Source: a virus
Lineage: Duplodnaviria; Heunggongvirae; Uroviricota; Caudoviricetes
Virus record (IMG/VR): IMGVR_UViG_2541047834_000001
Length of the DNA stretch: 37,741 nucleotides
Reading direction: 5' to 3' (one strand)
The number at the start of each line of letters is the position of its first letter. The first letter of the stretch is position 1. The position numbers were made by a program, and so were the translations under genes. Below the pieces are notes generated by a model. That model was given only the letters and a program-made list of their open reading frames with translations. It did no database searches and was not told the origin of the DNA. Of the stretch, positions 208 to 37,637 are shown in pieces.

Positions 208-1458
208 GTGCTTACCGATACAAAATTAAAGAACCTCAAGCCACAGGACAAACTGTACAAAGTTTCCGATCGTGACGGGCTGTATGTAGCTGTGCTTACG
301 TCAGGTACGGTCTCGTTTCGCTATGACTACCGTATCAACGGTCGCCGCGAAACACTGGTAATCGGGCAGTATGGGCGTGACGGTATCAGCCTGGCAGAAG
401 CGCGAGAAGAACTGATTGCTGCAAAGAAGCTGCTTAAAGCAGGCCAGTCACCGGCTGCGGCTAAACGTGACGGTATCAAAAAGATTCGTGGTGCCGAGAC
501 GTTTGCGGTACATACCGACAGTTATATGAAACACGTCATCCTGGCTGACAGTACCCGCGCAATGAAACAGGCGGTGATCGACCGTGACATACTTCCGACT
601 CTTGGCAATAAAATGATGGCTGAAATTACCACATCGATGGTTCGTGATTTGTGTGACCGGATTGTCGAACGCGGTGGCCGGGCAACAGCAGTGCAGGCCA
701 GGGAGATCATCAGTAGCGTATACCGTCACGCCAATGACCGTGGTCATGGTTTGTTTAATCCTGCGGCTGACATTAAACCTTCGTCTATCGCCATATTTAA
801 ACCACGAGAGCGAACACTGACACCAGAAGAAATTGGCCTGTTCTTCCGCACGCTGGATGCCATTGGTGCTATGGGCACTATGAAAATGGCTTTAAAACTG
901 GTGCTTATCACTATGGTTCGTAAGGGCGAATTCACCAATGCAACGTGGGATGAAATAGATTTTAAAAAATGGACATGGACAATTCCTCCAGACCGCATGA
1001 AGGGAAGCCGGGCGCACGTTATTTACCTGCCTAAACAGGCACAGGATATATTGGTCGGGTTGCAGATGTGCGCTGGTGGAAGTGAATATCTGGTTCCTGG
1101 TCGTTACAATTTCCGGAAGCCATTATCTAATGCCGCGCTAAACTCTCTGATCGACAGAACGGTGAAAATAATAAATGAAGATGGTGAGCATATTCAGGAC
1201 TTCACTGTACATGATATGCGCCGTACAGCCAGTACGTTGTTGCATGAGGCTGGTTATCCTTCAGACTGGATTGAAAAGGCTCTGGCACATGAGCAGAAAG
1301 GTGTGCGCGCCGTATATAACAAAGCGGAATACGCCAGACAGCGCGCCTACATGTTGCAGCAGTGGGCCGATATGATTGATTCATGGATTGACGGGGAGCA
1401 TACGGATCTGATTCCGTTCTCCCCGTCGAAGTTTGAGAAGTGGATGGCGGGGGAATAA
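208..1458 (+). CDS. int: Tyrosine site-specific integrase (P4-type phage integrase family)
   Basis: 416-aa ORF next to attL; N-terminal arm-binding-like region (YVAV..FRYDYRINGRRE) and C-terminal catalytic region with HDMRRT (HxxR) and RAVYNKAEY (Tyr nucleophile region). Confidence 0.9.
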   Translation: MLTDTKLKNLKPQDKLYKVSDRDGLYVAVLTSGTVSFRYDYRINGRRETLVIGQYGRDGISLAEAREELIAAKKLLKAGQSPAAAKRDGIKKIRGAETFAVHTDSYMKHVILADSTRAMKQAVIDRDILPTLGNKMMAEITTSMVRDLCDRIVERGGRATAVQAREIISSVYRHANDRGHGLFNPAADIKPSSIAIFKPRERTLTPEEIGLFFRTLDAIGAMGTMKMALKLVLITMVRKGEFTNATWDEIDFKKWTWTIPPDRMKGSRAHVIYLPKQAQDILVGLQMCAGGSEYLVPGRYNFRKPLSNAALNSLIDRTVKIINEDGEHIQDFTVHDMRRTASTLLHEAGYPSDWIEKALAHEQKGVRAVYNKAEYARQRAYMLQQWADMIDSWIDGEHTDLIPFSPSKFEKWMAGE

Positions 1459-5153: not shown

Positions 5154-5172
5154 AACTTGTTACCTCGGTCTG

Positions 5173-8292: not shown

Positions 8293-8339
8293 TAAAATGT
8301 TCTAACGTCTATTGATTTCATGTCTTATGTGGTTTTTAA

Positions 8340-12500: not shown

Positions 12501-12831
12501 ATCAGCAGCAGAGCGCAAAGCCGCTCAGAGAGCCAGACAAGCTGCATCTGGTGTGCGTAAGCTGGAAATTGTGCTTGATGCTCAGGAAATTGAAATGCTG
12601 GAGCGTAACTGTGCCACGCGTCGCCCCGGGCGTGCGCCTTACGAATTTGGTGAGTATATAGCGTTACTGATCCGCCAGGATGATGCACGCGTGCGCGGGC
12701 GTATAAAATCGATCAGCAGAAAACGTTGCGGTAAGTGCGGCGAGAGAGTTCCAGTTAATTCATGCCCGTGCAATGGTGACTCGCAATGCTGGGTGACTAA
12801 AGGCTGGCATGAAACGAAATTAATAGTGTGA
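12493..12831 (+). CDS. Zinc-ribbon protein (CxxC...CxC), candidate late-gene regulator
   Basis: Basic N-terminus, C-terminal RKRCGKCGERVPVNSCPCNGDSQC; last early gene before terminator and terminase genes. Confidence 0.5.
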   Translation: MAKSAAERKAAQRARQAASGVRKLEIVLDAQEIEMLERNCATRRPGRAPYEFGEYIALLIRQDDARVRGRIKSISRKRCGKCGERVPVNSCPCNGDSQCWVTKGWHETKLIV

Positions 12832-12839
12832 CATGTCAC
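12828..12839. promoter_or_regulatory. Perfect 12-bp palindrome GTGACATGTCAC (copy 1)
   Basis: Overlaps stop codon of zinc-ribbon gene; terminator 42 nt downstream. Confidence 0.45.
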
Positions 12840-15069: not shown

Positions 15070-15095
15070 GCCAGCTCATAGGCTGGCTGTTTGTG
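15070..15095. terminator. Bidirectional terminator between convergent terminase and minus-strand gene
   Basis: GCCAGC-TCATAG-GCTGGC hairpin flanked by AAAACAAA and TGTTTGT. Confidence 0.5.
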
Positions 15096-15104
15096 ACATG
15101 CCAC
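15093..15104. promoter_or_regulatory. Near-palindrome GTGACATGCCAC (copy 2)
   Basis: Adjacent to bidirectional terminator 15070-15095, just 3' of minus-strand gene. Confidence 0.4.
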
Positions 15105-29687: not shown

Positions 29688-32162
29688 ATGAGACAGGAAT
29701 GTATACAAGCGGTCCAGCAGGCGGCGCAGCGCACGTTAACGGCGCGAGAAATACAGAACATTGAAGACCGCATTTATCGAAATATGCGCTCCATTGCTCG
29801 TGATGACCCGATGTCGTGGAGACAACTTTCCGAATCAGAGCGGCTATATCGTGCAGCACAATTGGCATCTGAAGAATTACAGCGAGAAGCGGCATTAAAG
29901 AAACGTCGTGTGGCCCTCACTATAGCCGCACGTCAGAGATTGGATAAATTTATCAATAGCTATCAAGGGGCTGATGGGAAACTTGGCGCTCTTAACCGTA
30001 CTATTGCTTTTAATGCAGACGGTAAATCGAATTTCCTCTCTGTTGAATCCAGAACAAAAGCCACTCGTGATTATGCATTGAGTCAATTGCAGGAGGCATT
30101 CGAAGCAGTTGATCCTCGCTTTTTTGGTCTGTTTGAAGATGAAGCGGGCGTACGTGACCTGGTATATGAAATGCGAGGGCAAAATACTGGCAATGCTAAA
30201 GCAAGAAAAGGTGCTAAGGCGTGGAGAGAAGTGACAGAGCTACTGCGCCGCCGGTTTAATGATGCTGGTGGGGACATTGGCTATCTCGAAAACTGGGGGC
30301 TCCCTCAACATCATTCTATGGAAAAGGTTGGGGCGGTATCAAAGGATAAGTGGGTTAGCGATGTTATAGGTAAGCTGGATCGCAAATATTATACCCGAGC
30401 CGATGGACAACTGATGAACGATGCCGAGTTGTCTGCATTTCTTGGAGAGGCTTATAACACGATCGCTACTGGTGGGCTGAATAAGCTTACTGATACCGGA
30501 ATGCGAATTTCCGGCGCACGTGCTAACCGGGGTAATGCATCACGACAGATACATTTCAAAGATGCAGATTCCTATCTGCAATATCAGCAACTTTATGGCG
30601 ATCGCTCTCTATGGGAAATCATGGTCGGTCACCTGGAAGGTATCAGTAAAGATATTGCACTGGTGGAAACATATGGCCCAAACCCCGATCATGTTTTCCG
30701 CTCTCTTCTTGATCAGGTGAAGGCAGAAACGGCAACAGCTAACCCGAGTAAAACCGGTAAAGTCGAGCGGCTGGCGAACAACACAGAGAATCTGTACAAC
30801 TTTATTTCCGGAAAGACACAGCCTGTAGCGAATCCGCACATCGCGCGATGGTCTGACAATATTCGCAACTGGCTGGTTGCCAGCAGACTCGGATCCGCGT
30901 TGCTGTCATCGTTCTCTGATCTTGGAACCATGTATCTGTCTGCGAAGGTTACCAACCTTCCAATGAACCAGTTATTCCGCAACCAGCTTGAAGCTATGGA
31001 CCCAACGAACCGTACAGAACTTGCGCGGGCGCGCCGCGCTGGTCTGGCGATGGAATCTCTACTTGGCAGCGTTAACCGCTGGGCGATGGATAATATGGGG
31101 CCGTCAGTGTCTCGTTGGGCGGCAACGGCGGTAATGCGTGCCAGTGGGCTTACAGCATGGTCAGATGCGCACAAGCGCGCCTATGGCGTAACCATGATGG
31201 GAAGCCTGGGAGAAGTAGTGTCACGAACACCAGACCTTCGTAGCCTCGATGACTCTGATTTTCGTATCCTGAAAAGCAAAGGGATTACTGACACAGACTG
31301 GAGCGTATGGAAGCTGGCGCAACAGGAGGACTGGGGGAACGGTAATAATACGATGCTGACACCGGAAAGCATTATGCGTATCCCTGATTCAGCAGTTAAA
31401 CATCTTGGTGAGCCTGAACGCGTGAAATTTGAGGCAATGCGTAAACTGCTCGGTGCCGTAACTGAAGAAGTTGATATGGCTGTTATTACACCGGGAGCAC
31501 GTGAGCAACTGATAACCGGTTCTGGTATTCAGCGTGGAACATGGAAAGGTGAATTAACGAGAAGTGTTTTCCTGTTTAAATCGTTCCCTATCTCGGTTGT
31601 TATGCGTCACTGGTCACGCGCTATGGGTATGCCGTCTGCTGGTGGGCGTGCGGCATATATTGCGACGTTTATTGCCAGTACGACCATTCTTGGCGCTTTG
31701 TCGCAACAACTTAACGACCTTGCGTCTGGTCGTAATCCTCGAGAGATGACAGGAGAAGATGCCGCAAAATTCTGGCTTGGTGCTCTACTGAAAGGTGGTG
31801 GTCTTGGCCTTTATGGTGACTTTTTATTGTCAGATCACACTAGGTACGGAAGCGGCGCGCTGGCGTCGATGCTTGGCCCGGTAGCTGGTCTGGTTGATGA
31901 CGTAGTGAAGATTGCTCAGGGCATACCGTTAAATGCTGTGGAAGGGAAGAGTGAGCAGACTGGTGGTGATCTGGTGAAGCTGGGGAAAGGTTTGATGCCA
32001 GGTGCGAATCTCTGGTACTTGAAGGCGGCTCTCGATCACATGATCTTTAATCAGATGCAGGAGTATTTTTCACCAGGCTATTTGCGTAAAATGGAGCAAC
32101 GTTCGAAGAAAGAGTTTAACCAGACATACTGGTGGCGACCTCAGGATGTCACTCCGCAATAA
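29688..32162 (+). CDS. Internal virion / ejection protein (gp16-like, large)
   Basis: 824 aa; synteny. Confidence 0.65.
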   Translation: MRQECIQAVQQAAQRTLTAREIQNIEDRIYRNMRSIARDDPMSWRQLSESERLYRAAQLASEELQREAALKKRRVALTIAARQRLDKFINSYQGADGKLGALNRTIAFNADGKSNFLSVESRTKATRDYALSQLQEAFEAVDPRFFGLFEDEAGVRDLVYEMRGQNTGNAKARKGAKAWREVTELLRRRFNDAGGDIGYLENWGLPQHHSMEKVGAVSKDKWVSDVIGKLDRKYYTRADGQLMNDAELSAFLGEAYNTIATGGLNKLTDTGMRISGARANRGNASRQIHFKDADSYLQYQQLYGDRSLWEIMVGHLEGISKDIALVETYGPNPDHVFRSLLDQVKAETATANPSKTGKVERLANNTENLYNFISGKTQPVANPHIARWSDNIRNWLVASRLGSALLSSFSDLGTMYLSAKVTNLPMNQLFRNQLEAMDPTNRTELARARRAGLAMESLLGSVNRWAMDNMGPSVSRWAATAVMRASGLTAWSDAHKRAYGVTMMGSLGEVVSRTPDLRSLDDSDFRILKSKGITDTDWSVWKLAQQEDWGNGNNTMLTPESIMRIPDSAVKHLGEPERVKFEAMRKLLGAVTEEVDMAVITPGAREQLITGSGIQRGTWKGELTRSVFLFKSFPISVVMRHWSRAMGMPSAGGRAAYIATFIASTTILGALSQQLNDLASGRNPREMTGEDAAKFWLGALLKGGGLGLYGDFLLSDHTRYGSGALASMLGPVAGLVDDVVKIAQGIPLNAVEGKSEQTGGDLVKLGKGLMPGANLWYLKAALDHMIFNQMQEYFSPGYLRKMEQRSKKEFNQTYWWRPQDVTPQ

Positions 32163-32171
32163 GGAAGTGTT

Positions 32172-32345
32172 GTGTTTTTAATTATTTTGAGTGTGATAAT
32201 TTCTGGTGGATTGTTATTTATTGACCGCTACAAATATTTTCTTAACCCTCAGACTCAAGCTATTTGCTGGTTCATCTTTGTTGTGCAGGGAGTAGTTCTT
32301 GTTGCAAGCCTTATTGAGGGGAGGCCTCTTATTTTTACTGGGTAA
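32172..32345 (+). CDS. Small hydrophobic membrane protein (57 aa), AT-rich moron
   Basis: GTG start 4 nt after AAGGAAG; VFLIILSVIISGGLLFIDRYKYFLNPQTQAICWFIFVVQGVVLVASLIEGRPLIFTG; about 30% GC; not in ORF track (size cutoff). Confidence 0.4.
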   Translation: MFLIILSVIISGGLLFIDRYKYFLNPQTQAICWFIFVVQGVVLVASLIEGRPLIFTG

Positions 32346-32357
32346 ATAGGTGACTAC

Positions 32358-32654
32358 ATGCAAGCTATAGGATTCATTGTTTATATCGTCGTTGGTCTTT
32401 TTCAGTTGGCAGCAATTATGGCTGGGCTTGAATCATGGTGGGGATTGCACTGGATAATTGCAGCCCCCATTGCTTTCATCGTGAGCTATATTCCATTTGT
32501 TGGAGCGATTGTTGGTATGGTTGGCGCTGTGGATGTATGGCGGTGGGAGTGGTGGCAGGCTGGCCTTCTCTTCTTTGGTGGGATCATCTTTGCTATTGTC
32601 TGCGGTGGAATGTCATCATTTTTCGAATGGCTATCATTCAGAAAAGGGACGTGA
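32358..32654 (+). CDS. Trp-rich integral membrane protein (98 aa, about 3 TM)
   Basis: Hydrophobic segments; stop embedded in GTGACATGTCAC palindrome; followed by terminator. Confidence 0.55.
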   Translation: MQAIGFIVYIVVGLFQLAAIMAGLESWWGLHWIIAAPIAFIVSYIPFVGAIVGMVGAVDVWRWEWWQAGLLFFGGIIFAIVCGGMSSFFEWLSFRKGT

Positions 32655-32662
32655 CATGTCAC
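32651..32662. promoter_or_regulatory. Perfect 12-bp palindrome GTGACATGTCAC (copy 3)
   Basis: Overlaps stop codon of membrane-protein gene; terminator hairpin starts 2 nt downstream. Confidence 0.45.
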
Positions 32663-32663
32663 A

Positions 32664-32688
32664 GGCCGCTTTCGCGGCCTTTAAATTT
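32664..32688 (+). terminator. Terminator hairpin GGCCGC-TTTC-GCGGCC + TTTAAATTT
   Basis: Perfect 6-bp GC stem with T-rich tail; between convergent genes. Confidence 0.55.
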
Positions 32689-32962
32689 ACCGGGTTTGTT
32701 TTCGTAATTGTTCGGCACAATAGTCGAGATGTGTTTGCAGATCCTGCATAGACATCTGTGAGCTGGTGACATAGTTAATCAGTGCAGTCAGTTCGGCAAG
32801 TGGGCCATCGACATTAAATCCATCCTTATCGAGATCCCGGAGTAATTTCATCAAGTGCGATCCCTCCACCAGTGACCTGACGCCTCCCGGCGTGTGAATC
32901 CTTTCGGTAAATCCGTCTTCCAGTGGATAGTGATACTGCTGCATCTTATCTTCTCCATGCAA
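32687..32962 (-). CDS. Hypothetical soluble protein (91 aa), reverse-oriented moron with own promoter region
   Basis: Only minus-strand gene in the structural module; upstream intergenic 32963-33139 contains an ATTACC-N5-GGTAAT site. Confidence 0.55.
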   Translation of the reverse strand: MHGEDKMQQYHYPLEDGFTERIHTPGGVRSLVEGSHLMKLLRDLDKDGFNVDGPLAELTALINYVTSSQMSMQDLQTHLDYCAEQLRKQTR

Positions 32963-33020
32963 TAACTGTATATTTATACAGTATCAAATAATTTGTTTGC
33001 TATCCAGCACGTTTTGCAAA

Positions 33021-33035
33021 TTACCCGAAAGGTAA
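33021..33035. promoter_or_regulatory. Operator-like palindrome ATTACC-CGAAA-GGTAAT between moron gene and tail fibre gene
   Basis: Perfect half-sites; followed at 33067 by TATGTGGTTTTTAA. Confidence 0.5.
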
Positions 33036-33139
33036 TATCTATTCGTATTCACAGTCTTTCTATCCATATGTGGTTTTTAAGGTAATAGAATAACCAGATA
33101 TGCGGCGCAACGGGTGCTGCGACTATCTGGAGATTTAAC

Positions 33140-35329
33140 ATGACGGTCTCAACCGAAGTTGACCACAACGAATACACCGGTAACGGCGTTACGACATCAT
33201 TTCCGTATACCTTCCGTATTTTCAAAAAAACCGACCTGGTTGTTCAGGTGTCTGACCTGAACGGGAACGTAACAGAATTGGTTCTGGATACCGGTTATAA
33301 GGTAACTGGAGCGGGCACTTATAGTGGCGGTGAAGTGGTTCTCCCGTCGCCGCTTGCTGCTGGATGGCGAATTACGATAGAGCGTGTGCTTGATGTGGTG
33401 CAGGAGACTGATCTTCGCAATCAGGGAAAATTTTTCCCCGAAGTTCATGAGGATGCATTTGACTACCTGACGATGCTGATCCAGCGATGTTTCGGGTGGT
33501 TCAGACGTGCATTGATGAAACCATCTTTGCTTGCAAAATATTACGATGCAAAGCAAAACAGAATTTCTAACCTTGCAGATCCATCACTTGAGCAGGACGC
33601 TGTAAATAATCGCTCAATGCGTAATTATGTCGATGCTGCAATCGCCGGGGTTGTTGGTGGTTTTGGTTGGTTTATACCGTCAGGAAGCGGGGCAAGACAA
33701 CGAACATTTCAAAGCAAAATGAGGGATATAATTTCTCCTTGTGATTACGAAGATAATATTTTTATGATTAAGGAGTTGATATCCAAAGGCAAAAATGCCG
33801 CTGTTTTTAACTCATATTATACTTTTGTTATTACTGTTGGCGAATGGGGTGATTACCCTACACTCAAAGATGCAATCATTGCAGCCCAGTCAATGAGACC
33901 TATGTGGGATGGTGGTAATGCTTTCTGCGAAATAAGAATTAAGACCGGGCATATTATCAACTATCAAATTGAATTCAGTTCAGGTGTTGATTTGTCTTGG
34001 ATTAAAATAACATCAGAAGACTCAGTGGTTTTCTCTGACACTCGTTTGTTTACTAAAATCGTTAGAACGTATTACGAATACAAGTATTTATTTTACATTT
34101 GCGATGCAGCAAAAAGTCCTGTATTTGCTATTCAGATCGAAGAAAATAGAGATGATAGCGATGTTTGTGCATTTATTGTAACTCAAAAAGCTGAACTTAA
34201 TTTCTATCCGTATTCAGGTGCTCGAAAGTTCTACGTTGGAATTCATGGTAGTTTTGGTGCAAAAATTAGTGCATATCATACCGGATGTGCTCCTGATGAG
34301 GAAAGTGTTGCTGCATATATGCCAGAAGGGTATTACGTATGTGATTTTTCTTATAGCAGATACTCTTCCCTGCAACTGGTAAATAATGTCAAGGCATCAA
34401 TGCCTGTAAGCAAGTTTGAACGGTGCACAGAGAGTACGGTTGCGTCAGTTAATTGTATTTATAATGTTAAAGCAGATTTTCAGGGGTCAAGTGCAAGCTA
34501 TTGTTATATAGGATGGAATGTAAGAGATGGTTCAAATGTTAATATACGCGACCATAAAACTATACATTGCTCATATCGTGGATTAACCTGCATTCATACA
34601 GCATATGTTGATGCAAGACGACATGACGTTGAAGAAAGTGATGCAGAAACAAGTGGTAAAGTCCTTGAACCAAATATTGAAAAAGGTTTTTATGGATGTG
34701 CACTTGGTGTGCGTATTGATGGTGCGGGTTGCGTTGATGTTGCTGGTAATGATATGCGCAATTGTGGAACAGCCGTTAATGCAGACACTGGTGCTGTTAT
34801 TTCAGGAAAGGCTGTAGATATCTCAGGGGCTGAGCTGGGATTTGATTGCCATGCAGGAGCATCTGTTAATTTTCCAAGGCTATGGGGTACAGATATAAAA
34901 AAATTAATGCACCTCCAAGATGGTGTAAGGTTTAACTCTAATATTTGTCATGTATTTGGTGCAAATCCCACAAAAGATATTAGATGGATTGATGTAGAGA
35001 GATCTGAAGCTTCTTTTATGAATGCAACGCTGGATGCAGATTCAGGATTTATTGCCGACTGTGGTAGTAGGATAACCATTGAAGGAAGTAAAGTTAAAAA
35101 CCAAACAATAAGAAGTTTTTTTGGATCATATGTGGCTATAAATAATACTGTTGCTGACAGAACTTATTCAGATATAGCCGATGTTCCGCAGTTGACTATT
35201 AGTGGAGGATCTTTTATTTCTGCTACAGGATATTCTAATTCTGACTCCAGCCCTCTGAGGTTGAGCACAACACGAAATACACTTGGCGTTGGAGGAGCTA
35301 TATTTTCAACCAATGGGGAAGTTTCATGA
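33140..35329 (+). CDS. Tail fibre / tailspike protein (conserved N-terminal adaptor, variable AT-rich distal domain)
   Basis: 729 aa; N-terminus (NEYTGNGVTTSFPYTF...NRISNLADPSLEQDAVNNRSMRNY) resembles podovirus tail-fibre anchors; distal portion about 35% GC. Confidence 0.75.
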   Translation: MTVSTEVDHNEYTGNGVTTSFPYTFRIFKKTDLVVQVSDLNGNVTELVLDTGYKVTGAGTYSGGEVVLPSPLAAGWRITIERVLDVVQETDLRNQGKFFPEVHEDAFDYLTMLIQRCFGWFRRALMKPSLLAKYYDAKQNRISNLADPSLEQDAVNNRSMRNYVDAAIAGVVGGFGWFIPSGSGARQRTFQSKMRDIISPCDYEDNIFMIKELISKGKNAAVFNSYYTFVITVGEWGDYPTLKDAIIAAQSMRPMWDGGNAFCEIRIKTGHIINYQIEFSSGVDLSWIKITSEDSVVFSDTRLFTKIVRTYYEYKYLFYICDAAKSPVFAIQIEENRDDSDVCAFIVTQKAELNFYPYSGARKFYVGIHGSFGAKISAYHTGCAPDEESVAAYMPEGYYVCDFSYSRYSSLQLVNNVKASMPVSKFERCTESTVASVNCIYNVKADFQGSSASYCYIGWNVRDGSNVNIRDHKTIHCSYRGLTCIHTAYVDARRHDVEESDAETSGKVLEPNIEKGFYGCALGVRIDGAGCVDVAGNDMRNCGTAVNADTGAVISGKAVDISGAELGFDCHAGASVNFPRLWGTDIKKLMHLQDGVRFNSNICHVFGANPTKDIRWIDVERSEASFMNATLDADSGFIADCGSRITIEGSKVKNQTIRSFFGSYVAINNTVADRTYSDIADVPQLTISGGSFISATGYSNSDSSPLRLSTTRNTLGVGGAIFSTNGEVS

Positions 35330-35766: not shown

Positions 35767-35824
35767 TATTATGCGTAATGCTTTACTGTTCAGGAGGTTG
35801 TTATGCATATAAACGGTGGAAAAC

Positions 35825-36229
35825 ATGTCAGCTCAACTAACCAGTGAAACTTTAAATCAGTGGCTTAGCATGAGTTCTCTGGCGGCGGTGATAGCAGGAG
35901 TTCCTCCTGAGGTTGCTTTGGGTGCTTTGGCTGGAGCGGTAATTTTTGTTACCTCTGCAGTAGAGTACCCCATCCGTCGCCGGGTGCTCCTGTCGATGCT
36001 CAGCTTTCTTTGCGGCCTTCTCTTTTACAAACCAGCAGCATCAATTCTTATCGGCATAGCCAGCCTGATCCCTACCATCACGCAGGACTCTTTTGAAAAA
36101 GGGATTGTTTTCTCTGCAGGCGCATTCGTGTCAGCAATTGTCGCTGTGCGTATTGGTATATGGCTCTATCACCGTTCCGATAATCCACGCGAGTTAATTC
36201 CGGGGAGAAAAGACGATGGTAACGCATGA
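35825..36229 (+). CDS. Membrane protein, possible holin/antiholin
   Basis: Multiple TM segments; directly upstream of and overlapping the next membrane gene and endolysin; start may be GTG 35816. Confidence 0.45.
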   Translation: MSAQLTSETLNQWLSMSSLAAVIAGVPPEVALGALAGAVIFVTSAVEYPIRRRVLLSMLSFLCGLLFYKPAASILIGIASLIPTITQDSFEKGIVFSAGAFVSAIVAVRIGIWLYHRSDNPRELIPGRKDDGNA

Positions 36230-36524
36230 GTTTTTTTTGCTTATCACCAATGCAGTTATTTGCACTGGCATAGCAATTCGCGTTGTCACATTCCGGCGTA
36301 ACGGCTCTCAACACCGAAGGTGGGGAGGATGGCTTGCTTATTTCCTGATTGTTGCTGCGGCCAGTATTCCTGTTCGTGTCGCCTATGCAATCTGGTTACG
36401 TACGCCAATGGCTGTGGATTTATCTGAGGTCATTATCAACGCTGTCATGCTGGCTGCGGTTATTAAAACGCGCGGTAACGTCGTTCAAATTTTTAAAGTA
36501 TCGAGGTCTAAACATGGAGATTAA
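36216..36524 (+). CDS. Putative holin (3 TM, charged C-terminus)
   Basis: 102 aa with three hydrophobic segments and basic tail, immediately upstream of the endolysin gene. Confidence 0.5.
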
Positions 36525-37143
36525 ACAATTCCAGCGAGCTGCTGGTATCAGCGAGGCACTGGCCGCACGCTGGTTCTCGCATATAACTTCTGCGATGAAA
36601 GAGTTTGGTATCAGCAAAGCAGAAGATCAGGCAATGTTTATTGCTCAAGTCGGGCATGAGTCTGGGAGCTTCACCAGGTTGCAGGAGAATTTCAACTACA
36701 GTGTCAGCGGACTGGCTAACTTCGTTCGGGCTGGGCGTCTCACTCAGGGGCAGGCTAATGCACTGGGGCGCCGTGCTGGTGAAGCACCATTGCCACTTGA
36801 GCGCCAGCGCGCGATCGCAAATCTGGTATACAGCAAACGCATGGGGAACAATGCCCCTGGTGATGGCTGGAATTACCGAGGGCGCGGACTTATCCAGATT
36901 ACCGGTTTGAATAACTATCGTGATTGCGGAAACGGTCTGAAGGTTGACCTGCTGGAGAGCCCTGAACTGCTGGCGCAGGACGAATATGCGGCTCGTAGCG
37001 CGGCGTGGTTCTTCGTCAGCAAAGGCTGCATGAAGTATACCGGCGATATTGTACGTGTAACTCTGATTATCAATGGTGGCAGAAACGGTATCGACGACCG
37101 GCGTGCGCGGTACATCACAGCAAGTAAGGTACTGGCGGTATGA
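36514..37143 (+). CDS. Endolysin, glycoside hydrolase family 19 (chitinase-like lysozyme)
   Basis: [12 protein letters not shown]...[16 protein letters not shown] motifs typical of GH19 endolysins; ATG at 36514. Confidence 0.8.
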
Positions 37144-37637
37144 TCTGGGCATTTGTAAAAGCATACCGTAAACAGTTACTTATCGTGGCGATGCTTGCTG
37201 TTCTGGTCATATCAGGAGTTGTTGCCTGGAATGTGCACGGCATCCGTCAGTACGATGCCGGGTATGCGCAGGCGAAGGAAGATCAGAAACAGGCTGATGA
37301 TAAGTTAAGGTCACAGCGTGAGCAGGAGAAAACACAAATTGAACGTGAAGCACAATCCCGTATCGATGCGGCGCGTGCTGATGCTGAGTATGCTAATTCC
37401 GCTGCTGACAGCATGCGCGCCGAGCTTGACAAAACCAGGCGGCTCGCCGAACACTATACCGGATCTTTCCCCCCTGGCACGCCAGCCAGCAAGGTCATCG
37501 GTGTGCTCGCCGACATGCTTGAAGAAAGCAACCGAGTTTACAACGCAACAGCAACTGAGGCTGAAAAGTATCGTATCGCAGGGGAATTCTGCGAGCAGCA
37601 ATACGATTCACTGAAGAAGCAAAAATCGTGGCACTGA
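37140..37637 (+). CDS. Rz-like i-spanin
   Basis: N-terminal TM ([18 protein letters not shown]) followed by charged coiled-coil; ATGA-coupled to endolysin. Confidence 0.7.
37366..37614 (+). CDS. Rz1-like o-spanin lipoprotein embedded in the +1 frame of Rz
   Basis: [20 protein letters not shown]: signal peptide with lipobox LTAC; Pro-rich mature part; entirely inside the Rz ORF. Confidence 0.6.
   Translation: MRRVLMLSMLIPLLTACAPSLTKPGGSPNTIPDLSPLARQPARSSVCSPTCLKKATEFTTQQQLRLKSIVSQGNSASSNTIH

Follow-up and report, generated by a model that had tools for sequence, protein, structure and literature searches.

An SPC32H-type antirepressor gene with a predicted LexA box and two accessory membrane-protein genes in a variable site of an Escherichia coli Uetakevirus prophage

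Genes and sites between the last internal virion gene and the tailspike gene

The DNA analysed in this study (the window) comprises the whole 37,741 nucleotides (nt) of the IMG/VR record IMGVR_UViG_2541047834_000001 and is an almost complete Uetakevirus (epsilon15/phiV10/SPC32H-like) prophage, whose gene order is integrase, repressor, terminase, portal and capsid, followed by three genes for large internal virion proteins, the tailspike gene and the lysis cassette. We examined the locus situated between the gene of the last large internal virion protein and the tailspike gene (positions 32,172-33,139). It carries two plus-strand open reading frames (ORFs) for small membrane proteins, designated ORF57 and ORF98 according to the length of their products, a palindrome followed by a hairpin, a convergent minus-strand gene, which we identified as the antirepressor gene ant, and an intergenic region with a LexA box, an operator and a candidate promoter of the tailspike gene (tsp) (Table 1). 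A sequence-only reading of the same DNA had presented the locus as an undescribed accessory module, including a reverse-oriented gene with an operator of its own. All the sequence features listed in that reading are present in the window, several of its numbers being corrected below; the described anatomy was retained in part, as was the idea of a cargo site, but the headline was not. The locus as a whole is likely to be best explained as three separate parts: (i) ant and its control region, (ii) the tailspike promoter and (iii) the two membrane ORFs. It represents mostly known biology, and what is still novel is one uncharacterised family of membrane proteins.

Table 1. Features of the locus and related genes of the prophage (positions in the window)
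Feature	Position	Strand	Remarks
Integrase gene	208-1458		one end of the prophage
rep, prophage repressor, 194 aa	5307-5891	-	presumed target of Ant; lies outside the locus but belongs to the same regulatory switch
Last large internal virion (ejection-type) protein, gp17-like, 824 aa	29688-32162	+	phrog_684 virion structural protein, E=0; upstream border
ORF57, small membrane protein with two predicted transmembrane (TM) segments	32172-32345	+	GTG start 10 nt after the upstream stop; AAGGAAG ribosome-binding site
ORF98, Trp-rich membrane protein, 98 aa	32358-32654	+	uncharacterised family phrog_3075
GTGACATGTCAC, 12-bp perfect palindrome	32651-32662		overlaps the ORF98 stop codon
Hairpin AGGCCGC-TTTC-GCGGCCT, 7-bp GC stem	32663-32680		6 nt past the stop codon of ant
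ant, small antirepressor, 85 aa	32687-32944	-	orthologue of SPC32H Ant
LexA (SOS) box AACTGTATATTTATACAGTA	32964-32983		approx. 10 nt in front of the ribosome-binding site of ant
ATTACCCGAAAGGTAAT, one copy of the 17-bp palindromic operator	33020-33036		putative Rep operator
Candidate tailspike promoter	33063-33091	+	-35 TCCATA (33063-33068), 17-nt spacer, -10 TAGAAT (33086-33091)
Tailspike (tail fibre) gene	33140-35329	+	phrog_5662 tail fiber, E=0; downstream border

Megablast comparison of the region 32100-33200 revealed matches to phiV10, O157 typing phages, HEMP4, phiv142-3 and vB_EcoP_ZX5, as well as more distant matches to the Salmonella phages 65FD, PAT1 and SPC32H. Parts of this region were detected in 540 of 5,426 complete E. 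coli genomes (approx. 10%), and the whole arrangement in 48 of these 540. A scan of the locus against Rfam detected no RNA family.

The antirepressor gene and its predicted control by LexA

According to the sequence-only reading, none of the three proteins encoded at the locus could be assigned to a family. This does not hold for the product of the convergent minus-strand ORF, which was found exactly as listed (32687-32962). When this protein was compared with the sequences of the PDB (phmmer), a single match was obtained, to chain E of entry 5D50, annotated as 'Anti-repressor protein' (E=5.4e-47), with 73 of 83 residues identical in an alignment of residues 8-90 of the ORF read from its TTG codon with residues 3-85 of the chain. 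Entry 5D50 contains the complex of Rep and Ant from Salmonella phage SPC32H; the homology extends over the full length of SPC32H Ant, with 88% identity in a tblastn comparison. The protein also matched phrog_450 (E=4.7e-48) and, with its C-terminal part, the 'anti-repressor' family phrog_1760. In the SPC32H record ant (SPC32H_020) is placed on the minus strand, flanked on one side by a 46-aa ORF annotated as 'putative integral membrane protein' and on the other by the tailspike gene, and the position and orientation of ant are the same in the window, SPC32H, 65FD and phiV10. The minus-strand gene is thus a known antirepressor of the SPC32H type and a core part of the lysis-lysogeny switch, of which the E. 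coli orthologue has been left unannotated: E. coli RefSeq records label this Ant as 'hypothetical protein' only. The one paper that we found on an E. coli Uetakevirus deals with a Bro-N protein, studied as an antirepressor (PMC9782041).

The 91-aa ORF starting from TTG at 32962, proposed in the sequence-only reading, is present in the sequence, but ant most likely starts from ATG at 32944 and encodes 85 aa, because this codon is served by a GGAG ribosome-binding site, a 258-bp coding sequence (CDS) is annotated by PGAP in an identical E. coli prophage, and the alignment with SPC32H Ant begins only at residue 8 of the TTG ORF. With this start the intergenic region in front of the tailspike gene is 195 bp long, instead of the 177 bp given previously. 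In Escherichia phage YDC107_2 (CP025713.1) ant is split into two CDSs and the gp17-like gene into several, with homopolymer-length differences from the window, and this fragmentation looks like the result of sequencing error rather than biology.

A LexA box was identified in the promoter region of ant. Compared with the SOS-box consensus of E. coli, TACTGTATATATATACAGTA, it shows 18 matches in 20 positions, a score that was not reached in any of 200 shuffled sequences, the next best site in the window matching at 13 of 20. The CTGT-N8-ACAG core upstream of ant retains its spacing from the gene in SPC32H, 65FD, phiV10, YDC107_2 and a Salmonella prophage (L014), and more distant Ant homologues of Klebsiella and Cronobacter retain a box with 17 of 20 matches. 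This box did not appear among the features listed in the sequence-only reading, which had assigned the motif ATTACC-N5-GGTAAT to the reverse gene as its private operator. The latter motif occurs throughout the phage and is common to its lytic operons (see below); it is the LexA box that represents the predicted control element of ant. We regard it as very likely that ant together with its LexA control constitutes an SOS-inducible antirepressor system.

The cognate repressor of the Rep type is encoded in the same genome (Table 1). It matched chain A of 5D50 ('Repressor') over residues 1-190 (E=4e-42) and the C-terminal domain structure 5D4Z (E=4e-20), and its identity to SPC32H Rep, taken over the full length, is 42%. 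The mechanism of SPC32H Ant is taken here from the PDB annotation and from secondary descriptions. In a review, self-cleavage of LexA is described as leading, in these Salmonella prophages, to production of an antirepressor, and the latter as inhibiting the lytic repressor through contact between the two proteins (PMC7380047, citing Kim & Ryu 2013); in two structural papers, a tetrameric Ant is said to bind two Rep dimers via the C-terminal tetramerisation domain of Rep and to break the DNA-binding tetramer (PMC9638917; PMC9986798), Rep itself being described as a looping-type tetramer (PMC9986798).

By analogy with SPC32H, the switch of the E. coli prophage probably operates as follows. In the undamaged lysogen, host LexA bound to its box would keep ant off. 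DNA damage would remove LexA and allow Ant to be made, and the Ant tetramer would then, to judge from the SPC32H crystal structure, bind the C-terminal domains of Rep and detach it from its operators, with the result that the prophage would be induced. The reverse gene, which the sequence-only reading had proposed to be cargo expressed in the lysogen and of undescribed accessory function, would on the same analogy be silent in the undamaged lysogen and would act as the trigger of induction. Two observations count against such a direct transfer of the SPC32H mechanism. Rep of the window is only 42% identical to its SPC32H counterpart, compared with 88% for Ant, and the binding of this Ant to this Rep is assumed. 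Moreover, no sigma-70 promoter of ant passed a consensus scan, and the candidate hexamers differ between SPC32H and the window.

The likeness to SPC32H goes beyond Ant and the presence of a Rep homologue. Both phages share (i) the order 824-aa virion protein, small TM ORF, terminator, ant on the minus strand and tailspike gene, (ii) the distance between the LexA box and ant, and (iii) a copy of ATTACC-N5-GGTAAT between ant and the tailspike gene. They differ in the low identity of Rep, in the host, which is E. coli here instead of Salmonella, in the extra 98-aa membrane gene of the window, and in the small TM ORF (57 versus 46 aa). Comparable regulatory logic is known from Tum of phage 186 and from the Gifsy and Fels-2 prophages, in which the repressor remains uncleaved and is inactivated, once the SOS response has been induced, by a small protein under LexA repression (PMC7380047; PMC3121763). 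The location next to the tailspike gene is specific to the epsilon15-like group.

Some relatives of the prophage carry a further antirepressor gene at the same site. Directly upstream of a Bro-N gene, the RNA genes isrK and C4 antisense (Rfam RF01394 and RF01695, both above the gathering score) were detected on the minus strand in phiV10 (L002, 3006-3191) and in a Cronobacter prophage (L006, 7668-7854). Judging from these matches, the phiV10 and Cronobacter relatives appear to possess two antirepressor systems, a module resembling the P1/P7-type immI (C4 antisense RNA plus Bro-N/Ant) and the predicted LexA-controlled small Ant. The window differs from them in lacking a Bro-N gene as well as isrK and C4 RNA. 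The C-terminal portions (approx. 80 residues) of the Bro-N 'antirepressors' were 37-45% identical to the small Ant (L002 2306-2511, L006 6937-7182, L010 7271-7510 and L025 7430-7675); in the comparison with the P1/P7-type module the values for phiV10, Klebsiella, Cronobacter and Yersinia were 37-39%. The small Ant therefore looks like a free-standing version of the C-terminal effector domain of the Bro-N proteins.

The phage-wide operator and the candidate tailspike promoter

The intergenic region between ant and the tailspike gene contains both motifs noticed in the sequence-only reading, the ATTACC-N5-GGTAAT site ATTACCCGAAAGGTAAT and, at 33067-33080, TATGTGGTTTTTAA, and each of them represents a motif that is more frequent in the window than expected by chance. 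When up to two mismatches were allowed, ATTACC-N5-GGTAAT was found at 14 sites of the window (1.17 expected; none of 100 shuffled sequences reached 14) and at 18 sites of SPC32H (1.0 expected). The sites of the window include those at 5172, 5234, 5946, 6331, 8277, 8339, 12917, 12935, 16078 and 33020. As regards their distribution, they flank rep (5172 and 5234 on one side, 5946 and 6331 on the other; three on each side in SPC32H) and they precede rightward operons in both genomes, namely the early genes, terS, the portal operon and the tailspike gene, as well as the lysis genes in SPC32H. Pairs of sites 62 bp apart recur in both phages, and the copy at 33020 is invariant at this position in five phages.

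This distribution fits that of the operators of a master repressor, and Rep is described as a looping-type tetramer (see above); we therefore infer that ATTACC-N5-GGTAAT is the operator bound by Rep. Against this it must be said that Rep binding was deduced entirely from where the sites are located, and that another phage regulator could use the motif. A published statement that Rep binds ATTACC-N5-GGTAAT was not found in the accessible literature.

The second motif, TATGTGGTTTTTAA, occurs a second time, without any change, at 8326, and both copies are situated approx. 45 bp downstream of a full operator. Its core, CATATGTGGTT, occurs six times in the window (0.73 expected), upstream of rightward operons. 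The candidate tailspike promoter (Table 1) contains this core (33065-33075) and a GGTAAT half-operator (33081-33086). Alignment of the upstream regions of tailspike genes from nine loci (E. coli, Salmonella, Klebsiella, Cronobacter and Yersinia) revealed a conserved block, TTCATAT(A/G)TGG - N - GGTAATAGAAT, which may be interpreted as a sigma-70-type tailspike promoter. A point against this interpretation is that the promoter of the window agrees with the sigma-70 consensus at only 8 of 12 positions, just under the threshold of the scan. TATGTGGTTTTTAA, previously counted among the control elements of the reverse gene, belongs to this putative rightward promoter of the tailspike gene. The same nine-locus alignment gave no indication of a conserved hairpin in the 5' leader of the tailspike gene, with only four weak pairs and zero covariation.

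Taken together, the intergenic region appears to consist of two back-to-back control regions, a leftward P-ant with the LexA box and a rightward P-tsp with the operator, the P-tsp and operator part of this proposal being somewhat more probable than its opposite. P-tsp would be built like the other lytic promoters of the phage, from the ATTACC-N5-GGTAAT operator, CATATGTGGTT and the GGTAAT half-site, and because of this shared architecture it is probably held off by Rep in the lysogen.

Two further observations concern the tailspike gene itself. Its C-terminal, receptor-binding part (33741-35329) has a GC content of 37.8%, compared with 46% in the conserved N-terminal 200 codons and 49% in the phage, which is consistent with a recently swapped receptor-binding domain. 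In addition, a copy of the promoter-associated motif, CATATGTGGCT, is present at 35127-35137, inside the 3' end of the gene and approx. 200 bp before the ORF at 35326. This copy points to an internal promoter for the downstream lysis or accessory genes, as in SPC32H in front of the lysis cassette (SPC32H 24829).

The cargo site and the membrane-protein genes ORF57 and ORF98

Comparison with related phages confirmed the view that the stretch between the last internal virion gene and the tailspike gene is a variable hot spot for cargo, in which the membrane ORFs are accessory. The 824-aa protein at its upstream border shows 99% identity to PhiV10p20 and 94% to SPC32H_018. ORF98 is present in HEMP4, phiv142-3 and YDC107_2 and absent from phiV10, SPC32H and 65FD. 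The slot of ORF57 is occupied in phiV10 and SPC32H by a 46-aa ORF (PhiV10p21/SPC32H_019) with 20-25% identity to ORF57, and in an epsilon15-like phage by a third, unrelated hydrophobic ORF; some small hydrophobic protein fills this slot in every Uetakevirus examined. Since they are present or absent among phages with a 94-99% identical upstream gene, ORF57 and ORF98 can be considered, on these comparisons, exchangeable and dispensable accessory cargo.

Other genes found in the same hot spot of relatives include HicA/HicB, Bro-N and pRha antirepressors, DUF6236 and further ORFs. In Cronobacter prophages (L006-L009, 6362-6820) a HicA/HicB-like (DUF1902) pair is inserted between the ORF98 homologue and the Bro-N gene, which confirms that the site accepts unrelated cargo. 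Homologues of ORF57 (56-58 aa, 67-98% identity) were identified in five genera (E. coli, Citrobacter, Klebsiella, Salmonella and Enterobacter), always 10 nt downstream of the 824-aa gene. Those of ORF98 occupy the same slot in four prophage lineages, of Cronobacter, Klebsiella, Yersinia and a different Salmonella podovirus-like prophage, the neighbours in the latter including faint T7_gp14 and weak T7-type terminase matches. Further relatives of ORF98 reside in other mobile elements, close to integrase or replication genes.

Both ORFs were found where the sequence-only reading had placed them, the first with two hydrophobic segments and the second (98 aa, 8 Trp) with three. Hydropathy analysis and an AlphaFold2 model (AF2; pLDDT 90.4 for ORF98) predicted two TM segments in ORF57 and three in ORF98, the four helices of the ORF98 model corresponding to TM1, a helical hairpin (TM2, kinked at P46) and a long TM3. 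The dN/dS values were 0.17-0.36 for ORF57 and 0.05-0.18 for ORF98. With these ratios the two ORFs are real genes under purifying selection, and their products are predicted to be small inner-membrane proteins. ORF98 belongs to phrog_3075 (E=1.6e-54), a family of unknown function; a word-indexed search yielded 52 homologues, and a profile search at least 748 clusters at 50% identity. Neither protein matched any model of Pfam, NCBIfam or PADLOC above threshold, and no papers were found in a literature search by protein accessions and phrog id. ORF98 showed no similarity to the other 98-aa ORF, located after the tailspike gene. ORF57 thus represents one allele of a slot-specific small membrane protein, and ORF98 a member of a large uncharacterised family.

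The sequence-only reading had regarded the membrane ORFs as a compositionally foreign, independently transcribed island, the usual marks of a moron. Presence or absence among otherwise near-identical phages was indeed observed for ORF98 and the 57-aa allele. A deviating base composition was observed for ORF57 only, with 36.8% GC (previously given as approx. 30%), against 49.2% for the window as a whole and a background of 49-51%, which had been put at 50-55%; ORF98 (46.5%) is close to the background, the minus-strand gene has 48.1%, and the only other AT-rich part of the locus is the intergenic region (35.9%). As for transcription signals of their own, a terminator was identified (32663-32680), while a consensus scan of the plus strand detected no sigma-70-like promoter between 32000 and 32360, a scan that a weak or non-canonical promoter could escape. 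The claim of independent transcription was consequently not upheld.

The palindrome-plus-hairpin element said to close the membrane ORFs was confirmed at 32651-32680. Its hairpin was the top terminator-like match and formed part of the minimum free energy (MFE) structure on both strands, with a weak T-run on the plus strand (TTTAAATTT). Because it lies 6 nt past the ant stop and directly after the palindrome at the ORF98 stop, it can serve both convergent transcripts and is a probable bidirectional terminator of the late operon and of ant. ORF57 and ORF98 would form the end of the late internal-virion operon, closed by the palindrome and this terminator. Both elements are conserved in phiV10 and SPC32H despite the different coding sequence in front of them, and mosaic break points of relatives fall at the hairpin (the HEMP4 match stops at 32681, the EC.W1-9 match starts at 32664). 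A weak terminator-like hairpin with TTTTT was also noticed at 32315-32331, within the 3' end of ORF57 and just before ORF98; ORF98 would in part be uncoupled from the late operon if this hairpin is functional.

The palindrome GTGACATGTCAC recurs in the window at 12828-12839 (exact) and 15093-15104 (one mismatch), and in SPC32H at four sites (2145, 19634, 26696 and 38629; 0.13 expected), all at operon ends. In both phages it marks the ends of transcription units, after the early-right operon, terL, the structural operon and Rz. Possible roles are those of a signal for termination or processing, of a protein-binding site, or of a boundary of module exchange. A CRP-like site was rejected on inspection, the half-sites being spaced by 4 instead of 6.

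Our tentative best guess, to which we give limited credence, is that ORF57 and ORF98 may act in superinfection exclusion at the inner membrane, directed against the DNA-ejection machinery of related podoviruses. The best analogy is found in P22, in which SieA is encoded in the equivalent slot. In this temperate podovirus the region between the last ejection-protein gene 16 and the tailspike gene 9 (sieA - orf59a - mnt - arc - ant) likewise combines a small multi-TM inner-membrane protein with an antirepressor module (PMC10883804), so that the order 16, sieA, ..., ant, 9 parallels the order gp17-like gene, ORF57, ORF98, ant and tailspike gene of the window. SieA types share less than 30% identity with one another, as do the slot proteins compared here. 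The two regions differ in that P22 Ant has 300 aa and is controlled by Mnt, Arc and sar RNA instead of LexA, and in that neither ORF98 nor ORF57 has detectable homology to SieA. SieA comprises types A-C and is marked by the motif FxRYPxEAxxFNK; comparison with type A, that of P22, gave a probability of 0.2% for the ORF98-family profile in hhalign and E=20 in BLASTP, and membership of ORF98 in the SieA family was rejected.

Several points weigh against the exclusion hypothesis. Besides lacking similarity to SieA, the membrane ORFs have no PADLOC match and no fold match: in a Foldseek search of the PDB and BFVD, the ORF98 model gave no hit with E<1, the K+-channel-like and holin rows being noise. 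The P22 sieA gene is on the opposite strand and has its own promoter, whereas ORF57 and ORF98 run in the direction of the late operon, the scan detected no promoter in front of them, and homologues of ORF98 in relatives begin only 1-35 nt behind the preceding late gene. A role in protecting the prophage would require that the two ORFs be expressed in the lysogen. Finally, domains of the ORF98 family occur fused to DUF805, RDD and MORN in longer proteins, which means that the family is not specific to phages; these fusions are uninformative on function.

[quoted passage not shown] We consider it possible, if rather doubtful. The terminal position of the two ORFs in the late operon, the missing promoter and the short distance of ORF98 homologues from the preceding late gene all agree with it, as do the conserved small residues of the TM helices (G49, G53, G56 and A57), typical of oligomerising helices. 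A weak similarity of ORF98 to Phage_holin_5_2 (E=0.027; shown by 4 of 28 family members) points in the same direction, but at 15.2 bits it is below the Pfam gathering threshold of 29.2, and a separate lysis cassette is located downstream of the tailspike gene, so that assignment to this holin family was rejected. The cassette is complete and of the SPC32H type, the ORFs in 35816-37637 being parallel to SPC32H_024-027 (membrane protein, holin, endolysin and Rz), and in relatives it shows matches to Phage_holin_8, Phage_holin_3_7 and endolysins. Furthermore, phiV10 and SPC32H are viable without ORF98, and in Yersinia and in a metagenomic prophage the ORF98 homologue follows a divergent or opposite-strand gene and must therefore be transcribed on its own there.

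It is highly improbable that ORF57 and ORF98 are virion or assembly components, for example membrane-active partners of the ejection proteins, as might be thought from their location directly 3' of ejection-protein genes in several lineages and from the constant presence of a small hydrophobic ORF in the slot. ORF98 is missing from phages whose ejection proteins are 94-99% identical, and these phages carry a non-homologous small ORF instead. The conservation of ORF98 is also decoupled from that of the neighbouring virion gene (in Cronobacter the ORF98 homologue is 61% identical and the adjoining gp17 homologue only 24%), and members of the family reside outside structural modules, beside integrases and replication genes. 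The distribution of both ORFs thus speaks strongly against a conserved role in virion assembly and fits mobile cargo.

A toxin/immunity or abortive-infection module, as proposed in the sequence-only reading, with toxic membrane effectors and the reverse gene as their regulator or antidote, is improbable too. Small hydrophobic proteins are often toxic when over-expressed, and a bona fide HicA/HicB pair is present in the same hot spot of Cronobacter prophages. On the other hand, the reverse gene is ant, with a different and known role; ORF57, ORF98 and ant occur independently of one another in relatives and are not a co-inherited module; and no toxin or defence model of Pfam, NCBIfam or PADLOC matched any of the three proteins (0 matches at E<=1 in PADLOC-DB). 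The remaining probability goes to functions not listed here.

Recognition of the LexA-gated Ant would explain the induction of these common E. coli prophages, including some of O157 and enterotoxigenic E. coli (ETEC), by DNA-damaging antibiotics, and the operator map suggests that the promoters of the early, structural, tailspike and lysis genes are all under the direct control of one repressor, with looping of the DNA. With respect to exclusion, a broader proposal, which we put forward with considerable reserve, is that ORF98, with or without ORF57, founds a widespread new family of inner-membrane exclusion proteins, non-homologous to SieA, that would block the ejection conduit of epsilon15-like and T7-like temperate podoviruses. 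If this is true, short-tailed temperate phages would generally use the slot directly behind their last ejection-protein gene as an 'anti-ejection' cargo site. Being large, conserved and uncharacterised, and found repeatedly in the hot spot between ejection-protein and tailspike genes, the ORF98 family is a reasonable candidate for exclusion-system screens.

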